The translations under genes and the position numbers were made by a program. Positions 23,607 to 34,136 of a DNA stretch of 64,000 nucleotides are shown piece by piece. The stretch spans positions 13,507 through 77,506 of the forward strand of contig CAZMKZ010000001.1 of assembly GCA_964567185.1 (NCBI GenBank), in the 5' to 3' direction. The DNA is from an uncultured Thermodesulfobacteriota bacterium. Lineage in GTDB: Bacteria; Desulfobacterota; GWC2-55-46; JADFVP01. Numbering within the stretch: the first letter of the stretch is position 1; each line of letters begins with the position of its first letter. The notes under the pieces were generated by a model, which was given only the letters and a program-made list of their open reading frames with translations, was not told where the DNA came from and ran no database searches.

Positions 23607-24455
23607 TTAATCCAGCAGGTTTCTTACGACAAAGTAGATATTCTCTTTTCTCTCCTTGAGACGCCTGAGGACATAGGCGAACCAGTCTTTTCCATAGGGT
23701 ACATATACCCTTACCTTGAAGCCCTCTTCCTTGAGGGCCTTTTGCAGTTTCCGTTTTATGCCCAGGAGCATCTGAAACTCAAAGCAGTCTTTCCCGATAT
23801 TATGATCCATTGCAAGGTCTTTGGCCCTGTCTATCATTGCCTCGTCGTGTGTGGCTATTGCCGGGATGTGGCCTTTCAGGAGCAGGGTCTCCATAAGGGT
23901 AAGGTAATTGACGTCAACGAGTTTTTTTTCCTGAAAGGCCACTCCCGGGGGCTCCATGTACGCGCCCTTCACAAGGCGCACGCTCGCGCGGGCCTCCATG
24001 AGCCGATGTATGTCCTCACCGCTCCTTATTAGCGCGCTCTGAATGGCGATGCCGGTTGCGGGAAAATCCTCATGGAGTTTCAGGAATATATCAATGGTAT
24101 CATTCGTGTATTTGGAGCGTTCCATGTCAAGGCGGGTAAATATATTAAGCGCGCGGGCCTTTCTGAGTATTTTACGGAGGTTGTCTTCCGTTAATTTAGG
24201 GGAGATATCAAGGCCCAGGTGCGTAAGTTTTAATGAAATGCTTGCGTCAATGCCGGTGCTCTGAATGTCCTCAAGGAGGGCCAGGTATTCGGAAACCGCG
24301 TCCCGCGCGTGCTTTTCATCTGTAACGCCCTCGCCGAGCACGTCTATTGTGGCGGCAAGGCCGGCTTCGTTCAGTTCCGTGCATACCCTTATGGCGTCAC
24401 CGCGCTCAGTGCCGGCGATGTATCTATGGGCTAGGTAGCTCGTAAAACCCTTCAT
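23607..24455 (-). CDS. proline dehydrogenase (monofunctional PRODH)
   Basis: 282 aa. The ...VRLVKGAYMEP... motif and TIM-barrel PRODH pattern. Confidence 0.75.
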   Translation of the reverse strand: MKGFTSYLAHRYIAGTERGDAIRVCTELNEAGLAATIDVLGEGVTDEKHARDAVSEYLALLEDIQSTGIDASISLKLTHLGLDISPKLTEDNLRKILRKARALNIFTRLDMERSKYTNDTIDIFLKLHEDFPATGIAIQSALIRSGEDIHRLMEARASVRLVKGAYMEPPGVAFQEKKLVDVNYLTLMETLLLKGHIPAIATHDEAMIDRAKDLAMDHNIGKDCFEFQMLLGIKRKLQKALKEEGFKVRVYVPYGKDWFAYVLRRLKERKENIYFVVRNLLD

Positions 24456-25783
24456 GAGCCTCCCCTGGCCCGGGTATCAAGGAATTGCCGTATAAGGGCA
24501 TCAAGGCCGGGTTTTTGAAAGTCCTCTATCTCGTATGTGACCCTCAGGGCCGGTTTTTTTATATCGATAATCCTTGAGAGGTCTATGGGCGTGGCGATAA
24601 GCACGGCGTCGCAGGGTGTGGCGTTTATCGTGTCGCCAAGGTCGCGGACCTGCCCGGCGGAGTATCCTACGGCGGGAAGGAGGTTTTTGATGCGGGGGTA
24701 TTTATCAAAGGTATCCTTTATGGAGCCGCGGGCAAAGGCGCGGGCGTCTACGGGTCTCCAACCGAATTTTGCGCAGGCCGCGCCCCCCGCTCCAAAGGCC
24801 ATGCCTCCGTGCGTGAGCGTGGGGCCGTCTTCTATTACAAGGACCTTTTTTCCCTCTGCAAGTTCCCCGGCCACCTCAAGGTGAAAGGCGGTTTTTATTA
24901 TTCGGGCCGTTGGGTTTATCTCTCTCACGCTCTGCTCAACGGCGGTTAAGGCGGCCTCGTCAGCGGAACGGGCCTTGTTTATGATAACGCAATGGGAGCG
25001 CCTTACGTTTGTCTCGCCGGGGTAGTAGCCCCTTTCATCACCTGGCCGCAGGGGGTCTGCCACGGTAATCTCAAGGTCGGATTTATAGAAAGGCGTATCA
25101 TTATTCCCGCCGTCCCATATTATGACATCGGCCTCCTTCTCGGCTTCATGAAGTATGGCATCGTAGTCAATACCTGCGTATACAACGAACCCCTCGGCCA
25201 CAAGGGGTTCATACTCTTCCATCTCCTCGATGGTGCATTTTTCTCGTTTTATATCTTCAAGGGAGGCAAAGCGCTGAACGCTCCTCTGCCTGTTAAGCTC
25301 TCCGTATGGCATGGGGTGGCGTATGGCCACGGGGCGCAGCCCCGCCTTTTTTATTATACGGGCTACAAAGCGGGTCAATGCGCTTTTCCCGCACCCCGTG
25401 CGCACAGCGCATATGGAGATAAGGGGAAGTCTGGAGGGAATCATGGATTTTTCGGCGCCGAGGAGCACGAAGTCTGGCCCAAGCGAGTTTACGAGTGAGG
25501 CCTTTTGCATCAGCTCTTTATAGGAGATGTCGCTGTACGAAAAGACAACCTCATCAATGCCATGTTTTTTTATAAGTTCAGGGAGCCTCTCTTCGGGATA
25601 TATGGGGATGCCCTCAGGATAGAGGGGGCCTGCAAGCTCGCCTGAGTATGTCCTTGTCTCAATAAATGGAATCTGCGTTGCCGTGAAGGCCGCTACATCA
25701 TAATCGGGGTCTTCCCTGAAGACCATGTTAAAGTTATGAAAATCTCTTCCCGCGGCTCCCATGATGATTATTTTTTTCTTCAT
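24452..25783 (-). CDS. COG2403-type P-loop protein (cyclic 2,3-diphosphoglycerate synthetase-like predicted GTPase)
   Basis: MKKKIIIMGAAGRDFHNFN... with Walker A AVRTGCGKSALT. Family assignment is from memory and is tentative. 4-nt overlap with the PRODH gene. Confidence 0.4.
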   Translation of the reverse strand: MKKKIIIMGAAGRDFHNFNMVFREDPDYDVAAFTATQIPFIETRTYSGELAGPLYPEGIPIYPEERLPELIKKHGIDEVVFSYSDISYKELMQKASLVNSLGPDFVLLGAEKSMIPSRLPLISICAVRTGCGKSALTRFVARIIKKAGLRPVAIRHPMPYGELNRQRSVQRFASLEDIKREKCTIEEMEEYEPLVAEGFVVYAGIDYDAILHEAEKEADVIIWDGGNNDTPFYKSDLEITVADPLRPGDERGYYPGETNVRRSHCVIINKARSADEAALTAVEQSVREINPTARIIKTAFHLEVAGELAEGKKVLVIEDGPTLTHGGMAFGAGGAACAKFGWRPVDARAFARGSIKDTFDKYPRIKNLLPAVGYSAGQVRDLGDTINATPCDAVLIATPIDLSRIIDIKKPALRVTYEIEDFQKPGLDALIRQFLDTRARGGS

Positions 25784-25857: not shown

Positions 25858-28086
25858 CTATTTGAACGGCAGGTAGCCGTCCCTCTCGCTCATAAGGGCG
25901 AATTCATTGCCCCGGGCGATGGTCTTGAAACCCCTCCCTGCCTCAAGCTCGGCTACGCGCTCTTTTTTTGTAATGATAAATAACCTCTTCTCCTCGTCTA
26001 CGGGCAGTTTATCAAGTGAATCCCCCTCCAGCTTCAGAATCTTTTTACCTGCGTAATAAAAGGCGATAGAGGGCTGGTTTATCTCATAGGTGGCAAGGGC
26101 GGACCCGGCTCCGGCGTTTTTAGCGTATTTTGCGTACTCATAGAGGTCGCGCTGCATGAAGGAGTTTACCGGAGGTATGGCCTCAAGGCGTAAAAAAACG
26201 AGGAGAGCCACGGCCACGGCGGCTATAAAGGGTGTGTATTTTCCGGGGTTTGAGATGGAAAATATGGCGAAGATACCTGTTAGAAGGAAAATAACGCCAA
26301 GGCCCGTAAAGAGAACCGGGGGCATGGGTATCTCCATTTTTAGACCAAGATGGGGGGTTATGAAGGCCGCAGTAGAGAGAATAAAGGAGAGCACGGCCAT
26401 GGCGACAGCGCCGAACTTCTTGGCTCTGCCTTGCTCAATACTCTCTGATATAAGAAGACCAACAAGTACGGAACAGGCAGGTATGGCCGGAAAGATATAG
26501 TTGGGAAGCTTGGTTCTGGAGATGGAAAAGAATATGAATATAAATAAAAACCAGATAGAGGTGAATAAAAATATATCATTATTTTCGGTATGTTTACCTA
26601 TTTCTTTAAAGCCCTTTATTACGGCTTCGGGCAGATGGACTACCCAGGGGAAAAAGCCGGCGAGGAGTATGAGTACATAAAAGTAGGGCGGCCCGCCGTG
26701 GCTTGAGATGACGCCCGTAAAGCGGTGTATATGGTGCTTTATAATAAAGGCGTCAAAGAACTCCCAGCCCTGCGCATGGTATTCAAGGAGGAACCAGGGC
26801 ATGGCTATTAAGAGAAACAGGAGGATATAAAGCGGGTTCAGGAGCCTCTTGATGGCGGGCATGTCTTTTTTTATAAAGAGATATAGCAGGGAAATGGAGA
26901 GGGGAAAGAGCAGGCCAATGGCCCCTTTTGTAAGCATGGCCAGCGCCGATGATGCCCAGAATGCTATATAGAGCCTCTTATCCCCTGTTTTTATGGCCCC
27001 ATAGGCGGAAAAAAGCGCACCGGAGATAAAAAAGGCCAGGGTCATGTCTGTTACGGCGGAGTGCGAGTACACGAAGAACTCGATATTCAATAAAAGCGCG
27101 AGGCACGACCATAGGGCCGCCCTGAAGCCCTTGAAGCGTCTTACAAAGACAAATGTGGTAAGGACAAGAAGGACGCCGAGCCCGGCCGAGGGAAACCTCG
27201 CCGAGAACTCCGAGATGCCGAACATCTTAAAGGCCCCGGACATGGCCCAGTAAAAGAGTATGGGCTTATCGTACCGGGGCTCGAAGTTGTATGTGGGCGT
27301 AATAACGTCGCCTGTGACCACCATCTCCCGTGAGGCCTCGGAAAAGACCGCCTCGTCCACATCGAAGACAAGGTAGCCGCCGAGTTTGAAAAAGCATATG
27401 GATAATACAAGCAAGGTCAGCCCAGCCATGGCCCACCTTCTTTTTCGCATTGCCATGGGTCCGCCCGATGTGAGGAGCCAGCCAACGGCAATTCCAACGA
27501 TGGCCCCGCCCACGATATCCGAGGGATAGTGCGAGCCAAGGGCTATCCTTGAGAGGGCTATAAGGGAGGCCAGAGCGTAAAGGGGCAGGCGCAGGCGCGG
27601 GTAGCGTCTTGCGATTACAGCGGCAAGGGCAAATGCCGTTGCCGTATGTCCGGAGGGAAAGGAATTGAACCTTCCGGTGAGATCGAAGAATGAGGGATGC
27701 TCGATGGCATGGAGCACGTAGCCGGCCACATGCGTTGGCCGGGGCCTCTCGAATACGGCCTTGATTATCTGCGCCACACCGCCGGAGAGGAGCACGGCGT
27801 AGAGGGAATCCCTTCCAGTTAATTTCAGGCAATCACGTTTAAGATACCGGCCCAGGCCGAAGAGTATCAGGGCCAGAGGTATGAGAAGACCGCCGTTGCC
27901 AAGGAGGCTGAAAAATTCTGCGAGACTGGATAGAAGGCCCGTAAGGTGTATGGAAGCGGGGATAAAATCAAGGGTTGCCGAGGCCAGAAGGACAATGACA
28001 GCGATGGCTACCGTAAAAAAGGCCCGCGAAGAATGCCATTGCGCCGTGCCTGCGCCCCCGGCCCAACCCGGCTCCCCTGTGCTCAA
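25858..28086 (-). CDS. fusion protein: N-terminal PAP2 lipid-phosphate phosphatase plus C-terminal ArnT/PMT_2-type (GT-C) glycosyltransferase
   Basis: PAP2 motifs KAVFERPRP, FPSGHTA and SRIALGSHYPSD. Then the ArnT-like DEAVFSEASREM...PRYDKPILFYWAMS...FGISEFSARFPSA and about 12 TM helices. Confidence 0.8.
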   Translation of the reverse strand: MSTGEPGWAGGAGTAQWHSSRAFFTVAIAVIVLLASATLDFIPASIHLTGLLSSLAEFFSLLGNGGLLIPLALILFGLGRYLKRDCLKLTGRDSLYAVLLSGGVAQIIKAVFERPRPTHVAGYVLHAIEHPSFFDLTGRFNSFPSGHTATAFALAAVIARRYPRLRLPLYALASLIALSRIALGSHYPSDIVGGAIVGIAVGWLLTSGGPMAMRKRRWAMAGLTLLVLSICFFKLGGYLVFDVDEAVFSEASREMVVTGDVITPTYNFEPRYDKPILFYWAMSGAFKMFGISEFSARFPSAGLGVLLVLTTFVFVRRFKGFRAALWSCLALLLNIEFFVYSHSAVTDMTLAFFISGALFSAYGAIKTGDKRLYIAFWASSALAMLTKGAIGLLFPLSISLLYLFIKKDMPAIKRLLNPLYILLFLLIAMPWFLLEYHAQGWEFFDAFIIKHHIHRFTGVISSHGGPPYFYVLILLAGFFPWVVHLPEAVIKGFKEIGKHTENNDIFLFTSIWFLFIFIFFSISRTKLPNYIFPAIPACSVLVGLLISESIEQGRAKKFGAVAMAVLSFILSTAAFITPHLGLKMEIPMPPVLFTGLGVIFLLTGIFAIFSISNPGKYTPFIAAVAVALLVFLRLEAIPPVNSFMQRDLYEYAKYAKNAGAGSALATYEINQPSIAFYYAGKKILKLEGDSLDKLPVDEEKRLFIITKKERVAELEAGRGFKTIARGNEFALMSERDGYLPFK

Positions 28087-29360
28087 GCGAGGGCCTCCTC
28101 GAAGATACGGATGGCGCTCATCAACTCATCGCGCGTGATGTTCAGGGGCGGTATGAGGCGGGCTACGTTCTTGTCTACGCCGCAATCAATGATGATAAGG
28201 CCCCTCTCAAGGCACCTGGCCATGACCTTTTCAAGGCGCGCAGGGTCGGCGGAGCCGTCGGCCTTGATAAATTCCACGCCTATCATAAGGCCCATGCCCC
28301 GTACGTCGCCCATGCAGGCATGGTTACGCGCTATTTTTTTAAGCTCCCTTAGGGCAACCCGGCCAAGCCTTTCAGCGTTCTGAAGAAGCCTTTTATTTTC
28401 GATTACATCAATGGTGGCAAGGGAAGCCGCGCAGGCCACGGGATTACCGCCGAAGGTGGTGCCGTGGGCCCCGGGAGGCCATTTCCGCATGAGTTTTCTT
28501 GAGGCCCCTACGGCAGAAAGCGGAAAGCCGGAGGCAATGCCCTTTGCCATGGTGAGGATGTCCGGCGATACGCCGTAGGCCTCGGAGGCGAACCACTTGC
28601 CAGTCCTTCCAAAACCGCTCTGAACCTCGTCGAATATGAGGAGTATGCCGTGAGAATCGCATATCTCTCTTAATTTATGGAGAAAACCCTCCGGCGCCGG
28701 GCAGTACCCGCCCTCGCCGAGCACGGGCTCTATTATCATGCAGGCCACCTCGGAAGGGGTGATCTGCCTCCTGAGCATGGTCTCAAGGTACCCGATGCAC
28801 TCCATGGAGCATCTGTTTTGCCTTTGTCCAAGGGGACAGCGGAAGCAGTATGGGTATGGGGCGTGATAAACGCCGGGAACAAGGGGATGATAACCCTTTC
28901 TGTATCTCGCGCTCGATGTGGTAAGCGTCATGGCCCCGTAGGTCCTGCCGTGAAAACCGCCGAGAAAGGCGATTACGCCCTGACGGCCCGTGGCGATTTT
29001 GGCGAGCTTTATGGCCCCCTCAACGGCCTCGGCCCCGCTGTTTGAGAAGAAAAACGACTCAATGCCTTTCGGGGTTATGGAGGCCAGCCTCTCGGCAAGG
29101 TCAAGTATGCTGTCGTAATAGAATATACAGCCCGAATGGATTAGTTTTTCGGCCTGTCCTGCGGCGGCGTGGACAACATCGGGGTGCGCGTGCCCTACGT
29201 TAGAGGCGGCAAGTCCTGCGGCAAGGTCCATGTAGGTCCTGCCGTCTGAGGCCTCGACATAGACCCCGTGGGCTGAGACGGCCTTGATGGGCGTGTGAAA
29301 GACAAGGGCCGTGGTGAGGAATTTTCGGGCTTTTTTTATATGTTTTTCCGAGTCGGCCAC
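28083..29360 (-). CDS. class-III PLP-dependent aminotransferase (acetylornithine/GABA/omega-aminotransferase family)
   Basis: 425 aa with the class-III AT fold (…GGFHGRT…DEVQSGFGRTGKWFA…). 4-nt overlap (ATGA) with the downstream PAP2-ArnT gene. Confidence 0.85.
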   Translation of the reverse strand: MADSEKHIKKARKFLTTALVFHTPIKAVSAHGVYVEASDGRTYMDLAAGLAASNVGHAHPDVVHAAAGQAEKLIHSGCIFYYDSILDLAERLASITPKGIESFFFSNSGAEAVEGAIKLAKIATGRQGVIAFLGGFHGRTYGAMTLTTSSARYRKGYHPLVPGVYHAPYPYCFRCPLGQRQNRCSMECIGYLETMLRRQITPSEVACMIIEPVLGEGGYCPAPEGFLHKLREICDSHGILLIFDEVQSGFGRTGKWFASEAYGVSPDILTMAKGIASGFPLSAVGASRKLMRKWPPGAHGTTFGGNPVACAASLATIDVIENKRLLQNAERLGRVALRELKKIARNHACMGDVRGMGLMIGVEFIKADGSADPARLEKVMARCLERGLIIIDCGVDKNVARLIPPLNITRDELMSAIRIFEEALA

Positions 29361-29415: not shown

Positions 29416-29664
29416 TCAGTCCGCGTCTACGGGAACGGGCTCGCAGAGCATGGAATCGTATATGGCCAGCCTTCCGCATTTTTTGCAGATGTACTCGATT
29501 TTGTCGAGCATGGAGCCGCATACATGGCGGGCGTCATCCACGGTCTTGCCGCAAAACTCACAGGTAAAGGGCAGAGCCTCGGCCCTTGGGTGGCAAAGGT
29601 GACCCCTGCCGCTGGCAAGCCCGTCGCAGTTGGGGCAGTGATATGTCTTTACATATTCTGTCAT
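29416..29664 (-). CDS. small Cys-rich (zinc-ribbon/rubredoxin-like) protein
   Basis: 82 aa with CPNC...C...CEFC...C...CKKC...C. Sits between the ferritin-like gene and the aminotransferase on the same strand. Confidence 0.4.
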   Translation of the reverse strand: MTEYVKTYHCPNCDGLASGRGHLCHPRAEALPFTCEFCGKTVDDARHVCGSMLDKIEYICKKCGRLAIYDSMLCEPVPVDAD

Positions 29665-30575: not shown

Positions 30576-32537
30576 ATGGAGTCAAAAGTAAGGGGAGATG
30601 ATGCAGAGTCTTTTGGCCCTGTGTTGTGGAAAGGCAGGGCACGGGCAGCGGCCATCCTCTTGATAGCCTTTTCCGCCATCCTCGTCTACTCCAATACCCT
30701 CAATAGCCCTTTTGTCCTTGACGACCCCTATGTAATAGTCAACAGCCCCTATGTTCATGCCCTCTCCAACTTCTGGCCCCCCGGCGGCCCGAGGTATTTC
30801 GGGTACCTCACCTTTGCCCTCAATTACAGTATGGGCGGACTCAGCCTGCCGGGATATCATATTGTAAATATCGCTATTCATATCCTGAACGGGATACTCG
30901 TCTATACGCTGGCGCAATATATCTTCATGACGCCTGCTGTTCGAAATTTTACGGGCACGGAACAAAAAAGCACGGCCCCGTACATTGCCCTTCTATCGGC
31001 CCTTATCTTTACCGTGCATCCCGTAAACACACAGGGCGTAACCTACATCGCACAGCGTTTTACCTCCCTTGCCACCCTCTTTTATCTCCTGACGATAGTT
31101 TTTTATCTCAAGTGGAAAACTCTCAGGGGCACGGGGCGGGGGGCTGTTTTTTATGCCCTTTCACTCCTCTTCGCCATAGTCGCGCAGAAGACGAAGGAGA
31201 TAAGTTTCACGCTCCCCTTCATGCTGGTCTTTTTTGAGTTTGCCTACTTTCCCTCTTCCGGCAGGGATGGTCTGAAAAAGAGGGCAATCTATCTCGCGCC
31301 ATTTCTCTTCTGTCTCATCATCATACCCCTGTCCCTCTTCTGGACGGCCATTACCGGGATGATATTCCACTCCGGCGGGGGCAGTGGCGGCGGCTTCTCC
31401 TCTGCGGTGCCCCTGGACTTGAAAGAAATCCCGCAGTACAATTACGTGATTACACAGTTAAGGGTAACCATTACATATTTCAAGCTCATGGTCTTCCCTG
31501 TTGGCCAGAACCTTGACTATGAGTACCCGGTATTCCAGACCTTCTGGACCCCCGAGGTTCTCTTGAGCCTCCTTGCGAATATCGCCATCGTATCTTCGGG
31601 CATTTATCTTTTCCTTCGCTCAAGGGCCAAAAAAAACCCCTTCCTCCTTATTATCTCTTCGGGTATTTTCTGGTTCTATTTGGCCCTTGCCGTGGAATTC
31701 TTTACCCCCTTGAGAGACGTAATATATGAGCACAGAGTTTATCTTCCGGGCATAGGGATATTTTTTGCCTTTAGCACGGCCGTGCTCTACGGGTTTTCCA
31801 TGGTTCGTGAAAGATTTGCCCTTAAGACATCCTTTGCCAAGGCGGCGGTTGTAATCTTCTGTCTCATTGTTTTTCCCCTTGCCTCCGCCACATACGCGAG
31901 AAATATGGTATGGCGGGATATCGTAGTTTTATATGAGGATATACTTCAGAAGAGTCCCGATAAGGCCAGGGCCCATAACAACCTTGGGGCGGAATACGCG
32001 AAGAGGCGGTTCTTTGAAAAGGCGATAAAAGAGTTCAGGGCGACCCTGAAGCTGGATTCCAGCCTTCATGCCACGATAAGGAATCTTGCCAACGCCCTTG
32101 CGGAGGAAGGCCGTGTCGATGAGGCCGTGGTTGAGTATAAAAGGTTTCTTGAGACGAGTCCCGGCGACATTGACGCGCGCGAACGCCTCGCGGGTATCTA
32201 TTTTGACAGGGGGTTCATGAAACTCGCGGCAAAAGAATATATGATGATACTGGTCAGCCACCCGGATAGTATAAAGGCGCATAATAATCTGGCGAATATA
32301 TTCTTTTTACAGGGCTTGCTCGATAAGGCCCTGAGAGAATACAGTATCGTCTTGTCCATGGAGCCCGGCCATGTAGAGACCCTTTACAACATGGCCATAA
32401 CACTTGAACAGAAGGGCGATATGGCAGGCGCCGTCTCATATTACCGGAGGTTCATTGACGCGGCCACCCCTGAGTATGCCGTTGAGAAGGAGACCTCCAT
32501 CAGCAAGGTAAGGGCCTTTATGCAGGAAAATCAGTAG
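30576..32537 (+). CDS. PMT_2/ArnT-family (GT-C) membrane glycosyltransferase fused to C-terminal TPR repeats (TMTC-like)
   Basis: N-terminal polytopic region with VLDDPYVIVNSPYV and GYHIVNIAIHILNGILVY, characteristic of PMT_2/TMTC. C-terminal third holds TPR repeats (AHNNLG..Y, AIKEF...). Confidence 0.6.
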   Translation: MESKVRGDDAESFGPVLWKGRARAAAILLIAFSAILVYSNTLNSPFVLDDPYVIVNSPYVHALSNFWPPGGPRYFGYLTFALNYSMGGLSLPGYHIVNIAIHILNGILVYTLAQYIFMTPAVRNFTGTEQKSTAPYIALLSALIFTVHPVNTQGVTYIAQRFTSLATLFYLLTIVFYLKWKTLRGTGRGAVFYALSLLFAIVAQKTKEISFTLPFMLVFFEFAYFPSSGRDGLKKRAIYLAPFLFCLIIIPLSLFWTAITGMIFHSGGGSGGGFSSAVPLDLKEIPQYNYVITQLRVTITYFKLMVFPVGQNLDYEYPVFQTFWTPEVLLSLLANIAIVSSGIYLFLRSRAKKNPFLLIISSGIFWFYLALAVEFFTPLRDVIYEHRVYLPGIGIFFAFSTAVLYGFSMVRERFALKTSFAKAAVVIFCLIVFPLASATYARNMVWRDIVVLYEDILQKSPDKARAHNNLGAEYAKRRFFEKAIKEFRATLKLDSSLHATIRNLANALAEEGRVDEAVVEYKRFLETSPGDIDARERLAGIYFDRGFMKLAAKEYMMILVSHPDSIKAHNNLANIFFLQGLLDKALREYSIVLSMEPGHVETLYNMAITLEQKGDMAGAVSYYRRFIDAATPEYAVEKETSISKVRAFMQENQ

Positions 32538-32639: not shown

Positions 32640-34136
32640 TCAGTCTATCTGCGCCTTCTGCAACGCCCCGCTGAAATCCCTGTAAACCACCTTCACACGG
32701 GAGAACATATCAATGGCCCCGCCGCGTCCGCCCGCCTCCTTGTGGCCAAGGCCGCTCCGGCCCGTGCCGCCAAAGGGCAGGTGCACCTCGGCGCCTATGG
32801 TGGGGGCGTTTATATAGACTATGCCGGCGGTGAGGTCGCGCTCTGCGACGGCAGAGGAGTTAACGTCCTGAGTGTAAATGGCGGAGGATAGGCCGTATTC
32901 AACATTATTGGCTATTTCAATGGCATCTTCAAGGGACTCCGCCTTTATGACGGAAACAATGGGGCCGAAGATCTCTTCAGTGGCGATACGCATGGAGGGC
33001 GTAACACCGCTGAATATGGTGGGCTCCATGAAAAAGCCTTTTTCGTACTTACCTTCCGTAAGGGCCTTTCCGCCAAGGGAGAGGGTGGCTCCCTCGCCGG
33101 CACCCACCTTTACGTATGAGAGGGCTTTTTTCAGTTGAGCCTCGTTGATAAGGGGGCCTATATCGGTTTCCGACTTTAGCCCGTCTCCCACGGTTAGCCC
33201 GGCGGAGTCTGTGATGAGCATATCAAGAAAGCGCTCATAGACCTCTTTGTGAACGATGAGCCTGCTTGCCGCCGTGCATCTTTGACCCGTGGTTCCAAAG
33301 GCCCCCCAGAGCGCGCCCTCAAGGGCGAGTTCAAGGTTGGCGTCACTCATGATGATAATGGGGTTCTTGCCGCCCATCTCGCAGGAGACCGTCTTGTCAG
33401 GGCCCGCGCACATGCGGGCGAGTTTTTCACCCACCGCCGAAGACCCCGTAAAAGATAGGCCGTCCACGTCGGGGTGTGTGGCAAGGTACTCGCCAACTGA
33501 ATCGCCGCCTCCGTGAACAAGGTTAAGCACCCCTTCAGGAAGGCCCGCCTCGGCTATAATCTCAACAAGGCGTGTGGCCGCGGCCGGGGTATAACTCGAG
33601 GGCTTGAAGACCACTGTATTGCCAGCCACGAGGGCCGGGAATATCTTCCACGCGGGTATGGCCGTTGGAAAGTTCCATGGTGTTATGAGTGCAAAGACCC
33701 CGATTGGCTCGCGGAAGGTCTTGCAGTCTTTTGAGGGCAGTTCCGATGGCGTTGTCTCACCGGTAAGGCGCCTGCCTTCACCGGCCATGTAATAGGCCAT
33801 GTCAATGGCCTCCTGAACATCGCCGAGCCCCTCGGAGATAATCTTTCCCATCTCGCGGGTTACGAGCCTGCCGAGTTTTTCTTTCTCGCCTTTTAGTATC
33901 TCGGCGGCCCTGAAAATAATCTCGCCTCTTACCGGAGCCGGGGTAAGGCGCCAGGATGCGTAGGCCTCGCGGGCCGCCGCAACGGCGCTGTCTACCTCGG
34001 CCTTTGTGGATGCCGGAGCCAATGCCACAATCTCGGAGGTGTCCGCCGGGTTCAGGCTTTTAATGGACTCGCCCTTCGAGGCGCTCCACTTTCCGCCTAT
34101 GTAATTCATGAGGTTTCTGGTCCGTGTTGGAGACAT
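32640..34136 (-). CDS. NAD(P)-dependent aldehyde dehydrogenase family protein (start may be the internal Met at 34109)
   Basis: ALDH fold with FALITPWNFP and the catalytic Cys region. 498 aa. Confidence 0.85.
   Translation of the reverse strand: MSPTRTRNLMNYIGGKWSASKGESIKSLNPADTSEIVALAPASTKAEVDSAVAAAREAYASWRLTPAPVRGEIIFRAAEILKGEKEKLGRLVTREMGKIISEGLGDVQEAIDMAYYMAGEGRRLTGETTPSELPSKDCKTFREPIGVFALITPWNFPTAIPAWKIFPALVAGNTVVFKPSSYTPAAATRLVEIIAEAGLPEGVLNLVHGGGDSVGEYLATHPDVDGLSFTGSSAVGEKLARMCAGPDKTVSCEMGGKNPIIIMSDANLELALEGALWGAFGTTGQRCTAASRLIVHKEVYERFLDMLITDSAGLTVGDGLKSETDIGPLINEAQLKKALSYVKVGAGEGATLSLGGKALTEGKYEKGFFMEPTIFSGVTPSMRIATEEIFGPIVSVIKAESLEDAIEIANNVEYGLSSAIYTQDVNSSAVAERDLTAGIVYINAPTIGAEVHLPFGGTGRSGLGHKEAGGRGGAIDMFSRVKVVYRDFSGALQKAQID

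Follow-up and report, generated by a model that had tools for sequence, protein, structure and literature searches.

Analysis of a 64,000-nucleotide stretch of DNA from an uncultured Thermodesulfobacteriota bacterium (contig CAZMKZ010000001.1 of assembly GCA_964567185.1, positions 13,507 to 77,506; the whole stretch is called the window below) revealed a minus-strand gene in which a PAP2 lipid-phosphate phosphatase is fused to an ArnT-like GT-C glycosyltransferase. The fused architecture, the intact catalytic residues of both halves and the genomic coupling of the two activities were established by the data presented here. We propose that the product may be a bifunctional inner-membrane enzyme that remodels lipid A, following within one polypeptide the logic of LpxE then RgtF, or of LpxF then RgtD, and we put the probability of this at about one half. 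The gene and its parts are as follows.

25858..28086, minus strand: the whole gene of the PAP2/GT-C fusion, 742 amino acids (aa), stop codon at 25858-25860; a single open reading frame (ORF) with an identical public protein.
27457..27954, minus strand: PAP2 lipid-phosphate phosphatase domain, aa 45-210 (PF01569; six predicted membrane helices counting aa 12-44).
27736..27762, minus strand: PAP2 motif C1, KAVFERPRP, aa 109-117 (K109, R116), from the translation.
27646..27657, minus strand: PAP2 motif C2, PSGH, aa 144-147, from the translation.
27517..27552, minus strand: PAP2 motif C3, SRIALGSHYPSD, aa 179-190 (R180, H186, D190), from the translation.
27421..27468, minus strand: basic linker SGGPMAMRKRRWAMAG, aa 207-222, predicted to be cytoplasmic, leading from the last PAP2 helix to the first GT-C helix (hydropathy, AlphaFold, translation).
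26116..27420, minus strand: ArnT-like GT-C membrane domain, aa 223-657, 13 predicted helices (5ezm, Foldseek match 5f15, PMT_2).
27247..27363, minus strand: first periplasmic loop with the catalytic DVDE and the motif DVDEAVFSEASREM...RYDKPILFYW (DVDEAVF...RYDKPILFYW), aa 242-280, from the translation.
25861..26115, minus strand: C-terminal alpha/beta domain, aa 658-742, periplasmic by analogy with ArnT (AlphaFold strands and helices at aa 662-733).

According to the ORF list and the translation the gene is one uninterrupted frame of 742 codons with no internal stops, and the product that gene callers predicted on an identical public contig from JGI, P0001, has the same 742 aa (identity and coverage 100%). 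The initial annotation had described a single polypeptide joining PAP2 to an ArnT-like GT-C enzyme. This is borne out by the single frame and by matches to both domains, and the motif positions it quoted were all verified in the translation. The names given to this architecture in databases are generic: 'phosphatase PAP2 family protein', 'glycosyltransferase family 39 protein' or, in IMG, a double name. Full-text literature searches found no paper that describes or tests a PAP2-ArnT-like fusion.

A word-indexed protein search returned 601 matches at E <= 1e-5, and the 120 closest of these were classified with home-built PAP2 and GT-C profiles. They share 45-100% identity with the window protein and come from many independent assemblies, mostly metagenome-assembled genomes of Thermodesulfobacteriota or 'Deltaproteobacteria'. 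The order PAP2-then-GT-C was found in all 120, which are about 700-790 aa long with the exception of a few fragments. For comparison at the level of residues, 44 of these homologues, with 43-78% identity to the window protein, were aligned. A tblastn search of a plasmid collection gave just unfused GT39/ArnT matches, with identities of 31% or less.

The Pfam model PAP2 (PF01569) matches aa 95-207 with 92.2 bits (cut-off 27.2, E 2.8e-26). The superfamily is defined by the tripartite motif KX6RP - PSGH - SRX5HX3D (PMC6581854), which is complete in the window protein (K109-P117, P144-H147 and S179-D190). K109, R116, S145, G146, H147, R180, H186 and D190 are invariant in the 44 aligned homologues, so the three motifs reported earlier for the N-terminal part are not only present but conserved in their catalytic residues. 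By sequence, Aquifex LpxE comes nearest among the solved PAP2 enzymes (6ebu, E 4.6e-10, query aa 52-204). The same enzyme was the best Foldseek match for this part in the Protein Data Bank (PDB), with a target-normalised TM-score of 0.68 at about 24% identity, followed by B. subtilis YodM/PgpB with 0.64. All NCBIfam matches of the PAP2 part were below threshold: SepP 43 bits, the YbjG-type model PRK11837 31, PgpB 27 and LpxE 20. The score against the LpxE equivalog model PRK09597 (20.4 bits, cut-off 177) says little, because characterised LpxE enzymes are themselves only about 14-17% identical to one another (PMC6581854).

The ArnT-like GT-C region, with its C-terminal domain, occupies aa 223-742. 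The Pfam model PMT_2 (PF13231) matches aa 273-431 with 54.6 bits (cut-off 26.1, E 1.9e-14); with both Pfam models above their cut-offs, the domain identities first assigned hold. The nearest solved glycosyltransferase by sequence is Cupriavidus ArnT (5ezm, E 4e-43, query aa 225-573), and the top Foldseek match in the PDB is ArnT 5f15 (E 4e-19, target-normalised TM-score 0.78). Residues D242, D244, E245, V247, F248, K274, D347, K387, H451, H452, R455 and Y530 are invariant in the 44 homologues, and among these D242/D244/E245, K274, D347, R455 and Y530 match the DE, K (YFEKP), D (LDMTL), R (QRYT) and Y (LPGYI) of Cupriavidus ArnT.

The motifs specific to ArnT itself are RYA and YFEKP, and in the Burkholderia enzyme Tyr43 and Lys69 of these motifs are essential (PMC5377068). 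In the window protein RYA is replaced by VFS (aa 247-249) and YFEKP by RYDKP (aa 271-275), with only the Lys and Pro kept; because of these replacements it is no true ArnT. The NCBIfam ArnT model PRK13279 gave 154.9 bits over aa 216-638, below its cut-off of 567. The GT-C half thus has the fold of the ArnT family and is not an ArnT equivalog. The ArnT/PMT_2 signature of the initial annotation stands at the level of the family and falls as an ArnT-specific one. Judged by sequence, a donor or acceptor chemistry different from that of ArnT is likely.

An alignment of periplasmic loop 1 splits the relatives into two motif types. A fusion from an arn-type operon (P0239) has the ArnT motifs, DEGRYA...YFEKP; the fusion P0196 and a second GT-C protein from the same locus (L012), which lie beside ArnC- and ArnD-like genes, have the near-variants DEGEYA...YLEKP and DEARYA...YLEKP. 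The window clade, the fusion P0124 and most pairs encoded by separate genes are of the FDVDEAVF...RYDKP type. The survey described below delimits a DVDEAVF/RYDKP subfamily of GT-C enzymes whose members now carry no label more specific than 'PAP2 family protein' or 'glycosyltransferase family 39'.

Hydropathy and the AlphaFold model agree on six PAP2 helices, a basic linker, 13 GT-C helices and an alpha/beta C-terminal domain. The model was built on the 44-homologue alignment, with a mean pLDDT of 85.2 and a pTM of 0.88. About 12 membrane helices had been counted earlier in the glycosyltransferase part; that figure needs correcting to 13 predicted helices followed by the alpha/beta domain, with six more in PAP2. 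Three basic loops (aa 77-93, 160-166 and 210-222) share one face of the membrane, and the PAP2 motifs and the DVDE loop are on the other. The positive-inside rule and the analogy to PgpB, LpxE and ArnT therefore predict a periplasmic position for both active sites. Compared with Aquifex LpxE, the window PAP2 domain has an extra N-terminal helix, which would put its N-terminus in the cytoplasm.

To what extent the two halves belong together was seen from an exhaustive search of 50%-identity representatives, in which architecture was assigned by home-built PAP2/GT-C profiles. Of the representatives, 23 had the order PAP2-then-GT-C and 123 had a GT-C part only, while a single one, P0152, was GT-C-then-PAP2. 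Identity to the GT-C part of the window protein is 36-43% both for the fused proteins (700-820 aa) and for the stand-alone GT-C proteins (505-570 aa). Alignments with the stand-alone relatives start at query aa 207-230, at the linker, and extend across the C-terminal alpha/beta domain as well. In P0152 (733 aa) the GT-C with its periplasmic domain comes first and is followed by a five-helix PAP2 with all three motifs intact. This fusion in reverse order must have arisen independently. Its topology still works because its PAP2 lacks the first helix, and the idea that only the order PAP2-then-GT-C is topologically possible was rejected on this account.

Three stand-alone relatives were looked up in their genomic context, and in two of them a separate PAP2 gene lies upstream with its end overlapping the start of the GT-C gene. 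The order is PAP2, GT-C, GT2, LPG_synthase_TM in L015 and PAP2, GT-C in L018; the halves of the L015 pair are 41.6% (PAP2) and 38.9% (GT-C) identical to those of the window protein. Upstream of the third, P0125 (L017), there is an ORF fragment that is not PAP2, on a contig of only 2.5 kb.

Metagenome contigs were then scanned with the alignment of the GT-C half only, and the 80 loci returned were scored by home-built profiles; a locus was counted as having no PAP2 only when at least 900 nt were available on both flanks. PAP2 was fused to GT-C in 3/80 loci, immediately upstream of it in 30/80, immediately downstream in 13/80 and elsewhere in the locus in 5/80. There was no PAP2 in 15/80 loci with at least 900 nt on both flanks, and 14/80 could not be scored since a flank was too short. 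PAP2 is thus adjacent (43) or fused (3) to GT-C in 46 of the 66 scorable loci. By our own estimate a genome has only a handful of PAP2 genes, so that adjacency by chance at this frequency is very unlikely.

Of the 80 loci, 28 have an ArnC-like GT2 gene, which in most cases comes right behind GT-C, and 17 have a flippase-like LPG_synthase_TM gene. When neighbouring ORFs were clustered without labels (82 loci, the 80 together with L015 and L018), no partners recurred apart from PAP2, GT2 and LPG_synthase_TM. Behind these came clusters of housekeeping genes, each from a single lineage: a cation-efflux protein, RecJ, PurU, a lipocalin, an ABC exporter, a polyprenyl synthetase and FBPase. In 5/82 loci (for example L047 2498-3472) the module and the polyprenyl synthetase gene are no more than a few kb apart, which may reflect either supply of carrier lipid or synteny within a lineage.

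These gene arrangements indicate that the two activities are functionally coupled and their halves form a conserved module, with which the donor pathway, represented by the GT2 and the flippase-like gene, appears to travel. The coupling suggested in the initial annotation is supported by the adjacent and fused genes of the metagenomic loci and by the reverse fusion P0152. We tentatively suggest, although we would not wager on it, that the fusion marks a widespread uncharacterised four-part cassette that exchanges phosphate for sugar, consisting of PAP2, a non-ArnT GT-C of the DVDEAVF...RYDKP type, an ArnC-like GT2 and an LPG_synthase_TM flippase, and present in many uncultured lineages. In a bolder variant the acceptor of this cassette may be another membrane lipid phosphate, with lipid A not involved.

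Seven distant fused relatives were also looked up, and the contexts of three were informative. P0196 (818 aa; L012, contig JAHLLK010000003.1 of GCA_020444165.1) sits inside an lpx operon. It is preceded there by Skp, LpxD, FabZ, LpxA, LpxI, a GFO/IDH oxidoreductase, LpxB and MsbA, and followed by a second GT-C, an ArnC-like GT2, an ArnD-like deacetylase, KdtA, LpxK, LpxL and GT9. The second GT-C (708 aa) is ArnT-like by tblastn and by the NCBIfam ArnT model (190 bits) and has no precomputed Pfam match. The arrangement (L012 8001-12580) suggests that two glycosylation sites are served by one phosphatase domain.

P0239 (796 aa; L016) occupies the slot of ArnT after ArnB, ArnC, the ArnA formyltransferase, the ArnA decarboxylase (dehydrogenase) and ArnD. 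The L016 segment 2938-10391 (metagenome contig ERR13655508_22677) is a complete arn-type operon, and its terminal ArnT combines the canonical RYA and YFEKP with an N-terminal PAP2 whose KX6RP motif is apparently degenerate. It is paradoxical that a phosphatase should be joined here to an enzyme dependent on the lipid A phosphate. The third fusion, P0124 (750 aa), has as neighbours a GT9 heptosyltransferase, KdtA, LpxI, a Kdo-kinase-like gene and GT2; it shares the DVDEAVF/RYDKP motif of the window protein, and a separate PAP2 and PMT_2 pair adjoins it.

We suggest the following sequence of events for the window protein. Lipid A would first be flipped across the inner membrane. The PAP2 domain would then hydrolyse one of its phosphates, at position 1 or 4', by means of K109/R116, S145-H147 and R180/H186/D190. 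The GT-C domain would move a sugar from a polyprenyl-phosphate-sugar donor to lipid A, most probably to the newly exposed hydroxyl. This donor would come from an ArnC/RgtE-like GT2 encoded elsewhere in the genome and would be flipped after its synthesis. From homology and context we infer lipid A as the acceptor, both steps at one site, the position and the sugar. The closest solved structures of both halves are those of lipid A enzymes, a glycosyltransferase (ArnT) and a 1-phosphatase (LpxE). In the known pathways LpxE and LpxF dephosphorylate lipid A in the periplasm, after which RgtF and RgtD glycosylate positions 1 and 4', respectively (PMC9393093). RgtE is the GT2 that makes the polyprenyl-phosphate donor for transfer of the RgtF/RgtD type (PMC9393093, PMC7663294). 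In Aquifex 1-dephosphorylation by LpxE is a prerequisite for the addition of galacturonic acid (GalA) (PMC6581854).

Several observations weigh against this proposal. The contexts of four of the seven distant fusions (P0167, P0272, P0143 and P0142) were uninformative, and recognisable lpx genes were present in almost none of the 80 metagenomic loci. In the 64-kb window, tblastn with LpxA/B/D/I/K/L, KdtA, GT2, ArnD and LPG_synthase_TM queries found nothing but an unrelated ABC ATPase; the window and its close relatives place the fusion among aminotransferase, cyclic 2,3-diphosphoglycerate (cDPG)-synthetase-like and proline dehydrogenase genes, not among genes for lipopolysaccharide (LPS). The fusions from arn operons cannot act sequentially on the same phosphate, because ArnT glycosylates the phosphate itself. 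Finally, the substrate specificity of PAP2 enzymes is not readable from sequence, and characterised LpxE enzymes also hydrolyse undecaprenyl pyrophosphate (C55-PP) and phosphatidylglycerol phosphate (PMC6581854). The lipid A target of the initial annotation appears reasonable in view of the lpx, arn and LPS-core contexts of the distant fusions; for the window clade, with its context of amino-acid catabolism, it is not established.

The arn-type loci in particular bring up an explanation in which both domains act on lipid A at different places. PAP2 would, for example, strip the 1-phosphate or trim a 1-diphosphate, and GT-C would glycosylate the other phosphate or a core sugar; fusion would then secure co-expression and co-localisation for charge remodelling and not channelling of a substrate. 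This would account for the fusions with ArnT-type motifs in the arn operon of L016 and beside the ArnC- and ArnD-like genes of L012, since ArnT puts 4-amino-4-deoxy-L-arabinose on a phosphate that a phosphatase acting at the same site would destroy. The second GT-C in both the L012 and P0124 loci and the second PAP2 in the P0124 locus also fit several sites of action, and ArnT of P. aeruginosa has a physical interaction partner in the PAP2-family protein LpxT (PMC13142001). However, the window protein is of the VFS/RYDKP type, and arn-type behaviour need not apply to it. Fused enzymes usually catalyse consecutive steps, and the known pairs LpxE/RgtF and LpxF/RgtD work in sequence at one site (PMC9393093). 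We therefore consider action at separate sites unlikely, if deserving of attention.

The breadth of PAP2 specificity raises the second explanation, that the PAP2 half is a phosphatase for undecaprenyl pyrophosphate (Und-PP) or another polyprenyl phosphate which keeps up the carrier pool for glycosylation by GT2, flippase and GT-C, while the acceptor of GT-C could be anything in the periplasm. What makes this plausible is the efficient hydrolysis of C55-PP by LpxE enzymes, the closest solved one among them (PMC6581854). The best NCBIfam matches of the PAP2 half, although far below their cut-offs, are the undecaprenyl-diphosphatases SepP (43 bits) and PRK11837 (31 bits), and the polyprenyl synthetase gene near the module in five loci points the same way. 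On the other hand, ArnT-type GT-C enzymes use monophosphate donors and release undecaprenyl phosphate, not Und-PP, so that the transferase makes no substrate for such a phosphatase. Other two-step systems of GT2 and GT-C manage, to our knowledge, without a dedicated PAP2, and recycling of the carrier leaves the adjacency of about 70% and the two independent orders of fusion unexplained. A role in maintaining the carrier pool thus appears improbable.

The scarcity of LPS genes near most loci with the module could also mean that a lipid other than LPS is modified: a phospholipid, ceramide phosphate or phosphoglycolipid would be dephosphorylated and then glycosylated in the outer leaflet of the inner membrane. 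The motif type unlike that of ArnT agrees with this, and so does the range of lipid phosphates on which PAP2 enzymes act (PMC6581854). Nevertheless, the sole informative contexts found are LPS and lipid A clusters, and both halves have their best structural relatives among the enzymes of lipid A. We know of no GT-C enzyme that glycosylates diacylglycerol or ceramide, and regard this possibility as quite doubtful.

The last explanation, an assembly or frameshift artefact merging two neighbouring genes, which the initial annotation had named as a possible refutation, could be entertained since the overlapping gene ends in L015 and L018 mean that a single indel could join PAP2 to GT-C, but it is virtually eliminated and was rejected, given that all 120 closest homologues from independent assemblies are fused alike, the catalytic residues are invariant and the basic segment that links the two flanking helices is conserved.

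The surroundings of the gene within the window are formed by the following genes.

23607-24455, minus strand: Thermus-type proline dehydrogenase, flanking the module.
24452-25783, minus strand: cDPG-synthetase-like P-loop protein, 443 aa, soluble, with GCGKS; directly downstream of the fusion.
28083..29360, minus strand: class-III (ornithine/GABA-type) aminotransferase; its stop overlaps the start of the fusion by 4 nt.
29416-29664, minus strand: Cys-rich protein of 82 aa (CPNC...C...C..C...CKKC), between the rubrerythrin and aminotransferase genes.
30576-32537, plus strand: protein of 653 aa with C-terminal tetratricopeptide repeats (TPR; aa ~450-630) and an N-terminal multi-helix membrane domain of ~440 aa containing 'VLDDPYV', between the rubrerythrin and aldehyde dehydrogenase genes.
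32640-34136, minus strand: aldehyde dehydrogenase, with best matches to alpha-ketoglutaric semialdehyde / 2,5-dioxovalerate dehydrogenases.

The genes for rubrerythrin, the 82-aa Cys-rich protein, the aminotransferase, the fusion, the cDPG-synthetase-like protein and proline dehydrogenase form a probable operon, with a promoter-like site ahead of it at 30253-30224. The TTG start of the fusion overlaps the TGA stop of the upstream aminotransferase gene (cgcTTGAgc), and an overlap of 4-8 nt between these two genes recurs in the related loci L008 and L010; they are probably co-transcribed. The gene order from rubrerythrin to proline dehydrogenase is kept in relatives with 47-50% identity (L008, L010 and L011), with aldehyde dehydrogenase close by. 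The shared order is best taken as lineage-wide synteny, because collinearity runs on into MoaB, MoaE, ThiS, a GAF regulator, ProA, ProB and Obg. As it reaches unrelated housekeeping genes, the conserved neighbours were rejected as a clue to function. It was also considered that the aminotransferase might aminate the transferred sugar, and no support for this was found. No arn operon was found in the 64-kb window.

Some features of this region deserve mention in their own right. Proline dehydrogenase, the aminotransferase and aldehyde dehydrogenase resemble a catabolic set leading from proline or ornithine to glutamate, to which the fusion appears to be translationally coupled through the 4-nt overlap. 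The 443-aa P-loop protein has no Pfam or NCBIfam match and is distantly related to the archaeal cyclic 2,3-diphosphoglycerate synthetase (PDB 8oru, E 2.5e-7). Its gene sits in a bacterial cluster for amino-acid catabolism and is found in the same place in the 47-50% relatives. An ORF of 81-83 aa occupies the position of the Cys-rich protein in L008, L010 and L011. The layout of the 653-aa TPR protein recalls TMTC- or PMT-like GT-C enzymes, with no supporting Pfam or PDB sequence match, and L008 and L010 have no counterpart of its gene at that place.

If the lipid A proposal is right, the fusion would be evidence, so far from sequence only, that dephosphorylation and glycosylation of lipid A are physically coupled, and this uncultured Thermodesulfobacteriota lineage would be predicted to carry a sugar in place of a lipid A phosphate. 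Such a lipid A alters surface charge, resistance to cationic peptides, demand for phosphorus and recognition by innate immunity. The fusion would be a handy single-gene reagent for dephosphorylated, glycosylated lipid A and a good structural target for studying how a GT-C enzyme receives its acceptor. Should the cassette exist as outlined, phosphate-free glycosylated lipid A would be common among bacteria of groundwater and sediment, these Thermodesulfobacteriota included, and the repeated fusions in both orders would mean that one active site passes the dephosphorylated intermediate directly to the other.

Several known systems can be compared with the window protein. Coupling of a PAP2 enzyme to a lipid A modifier has a precedent in H. 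pylori, where LpxE (Hp0021) and EptA (Hp0022) are encoded in one operon; the partner there is a phosphoethanolamine transferase and there is no covalent fusion. The LpxT-ArnT pair of P. aeruginosa interacts physically (PMC13142001), again without covalent fusion; the relationship is antagonistic, and LpxT is a phosphotransferase. ArnT itself (GT83, 5EZM/5F15) resembles the window protein in its 13 membrane helices, periplasmic C-terminal domain and conserved DE/K/D/R/Y residues, but it lacks a phosphatase domain and glycosylates the phosphate itself. Aquifex LpxE (6EBU), a multifunctional 1-phosphatase, resembles the window domain in its tripartite active site facing the periplasm; the histidine of PSGH, kept in the window domain, is Asp in this enzyme (PMC6581854).

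Two pairs of enzymes come closest. LpxE and RgtF (with RgtE) of Mesorhizobium loti, Oligotropha and Aquifex carry out 1-dephosphorylation followed by addition of alpha-(1,1)-GalA, and have in common with the module a PAP2 enzyme and an ArnT-family GT-C on the periplasmic face and a polyprenyl-phosphate donor made by a GT2. In Oligotropha rgtE, lpxE and rgtF are adjacent (OCA5_c19730/40/50), a trio that matches the PAP2, GT-C and GT2 cassettes of the related loci (PMC7663294). The window differs in having one polypeptide, with no GT2 found in its 64 kb. LpxF and RgtD of Rhizobium leguminosarum, which remove the 4'-phosphate and then add GalA at 4', employ the same logic and the same families (PMC9393093). 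Their genes are separate and unclustered, and the window data do not tell position 4' from position 1. The chemistry is thus already known from rhizobia and Aquifex, and the fusion extends this knowledge without overturning it. By analogy with these systems, the window protein would best fit a fused form of the known two-enzyme step of lipid A remodelling, set within a widespread and poorly annotated four-gene cassette.

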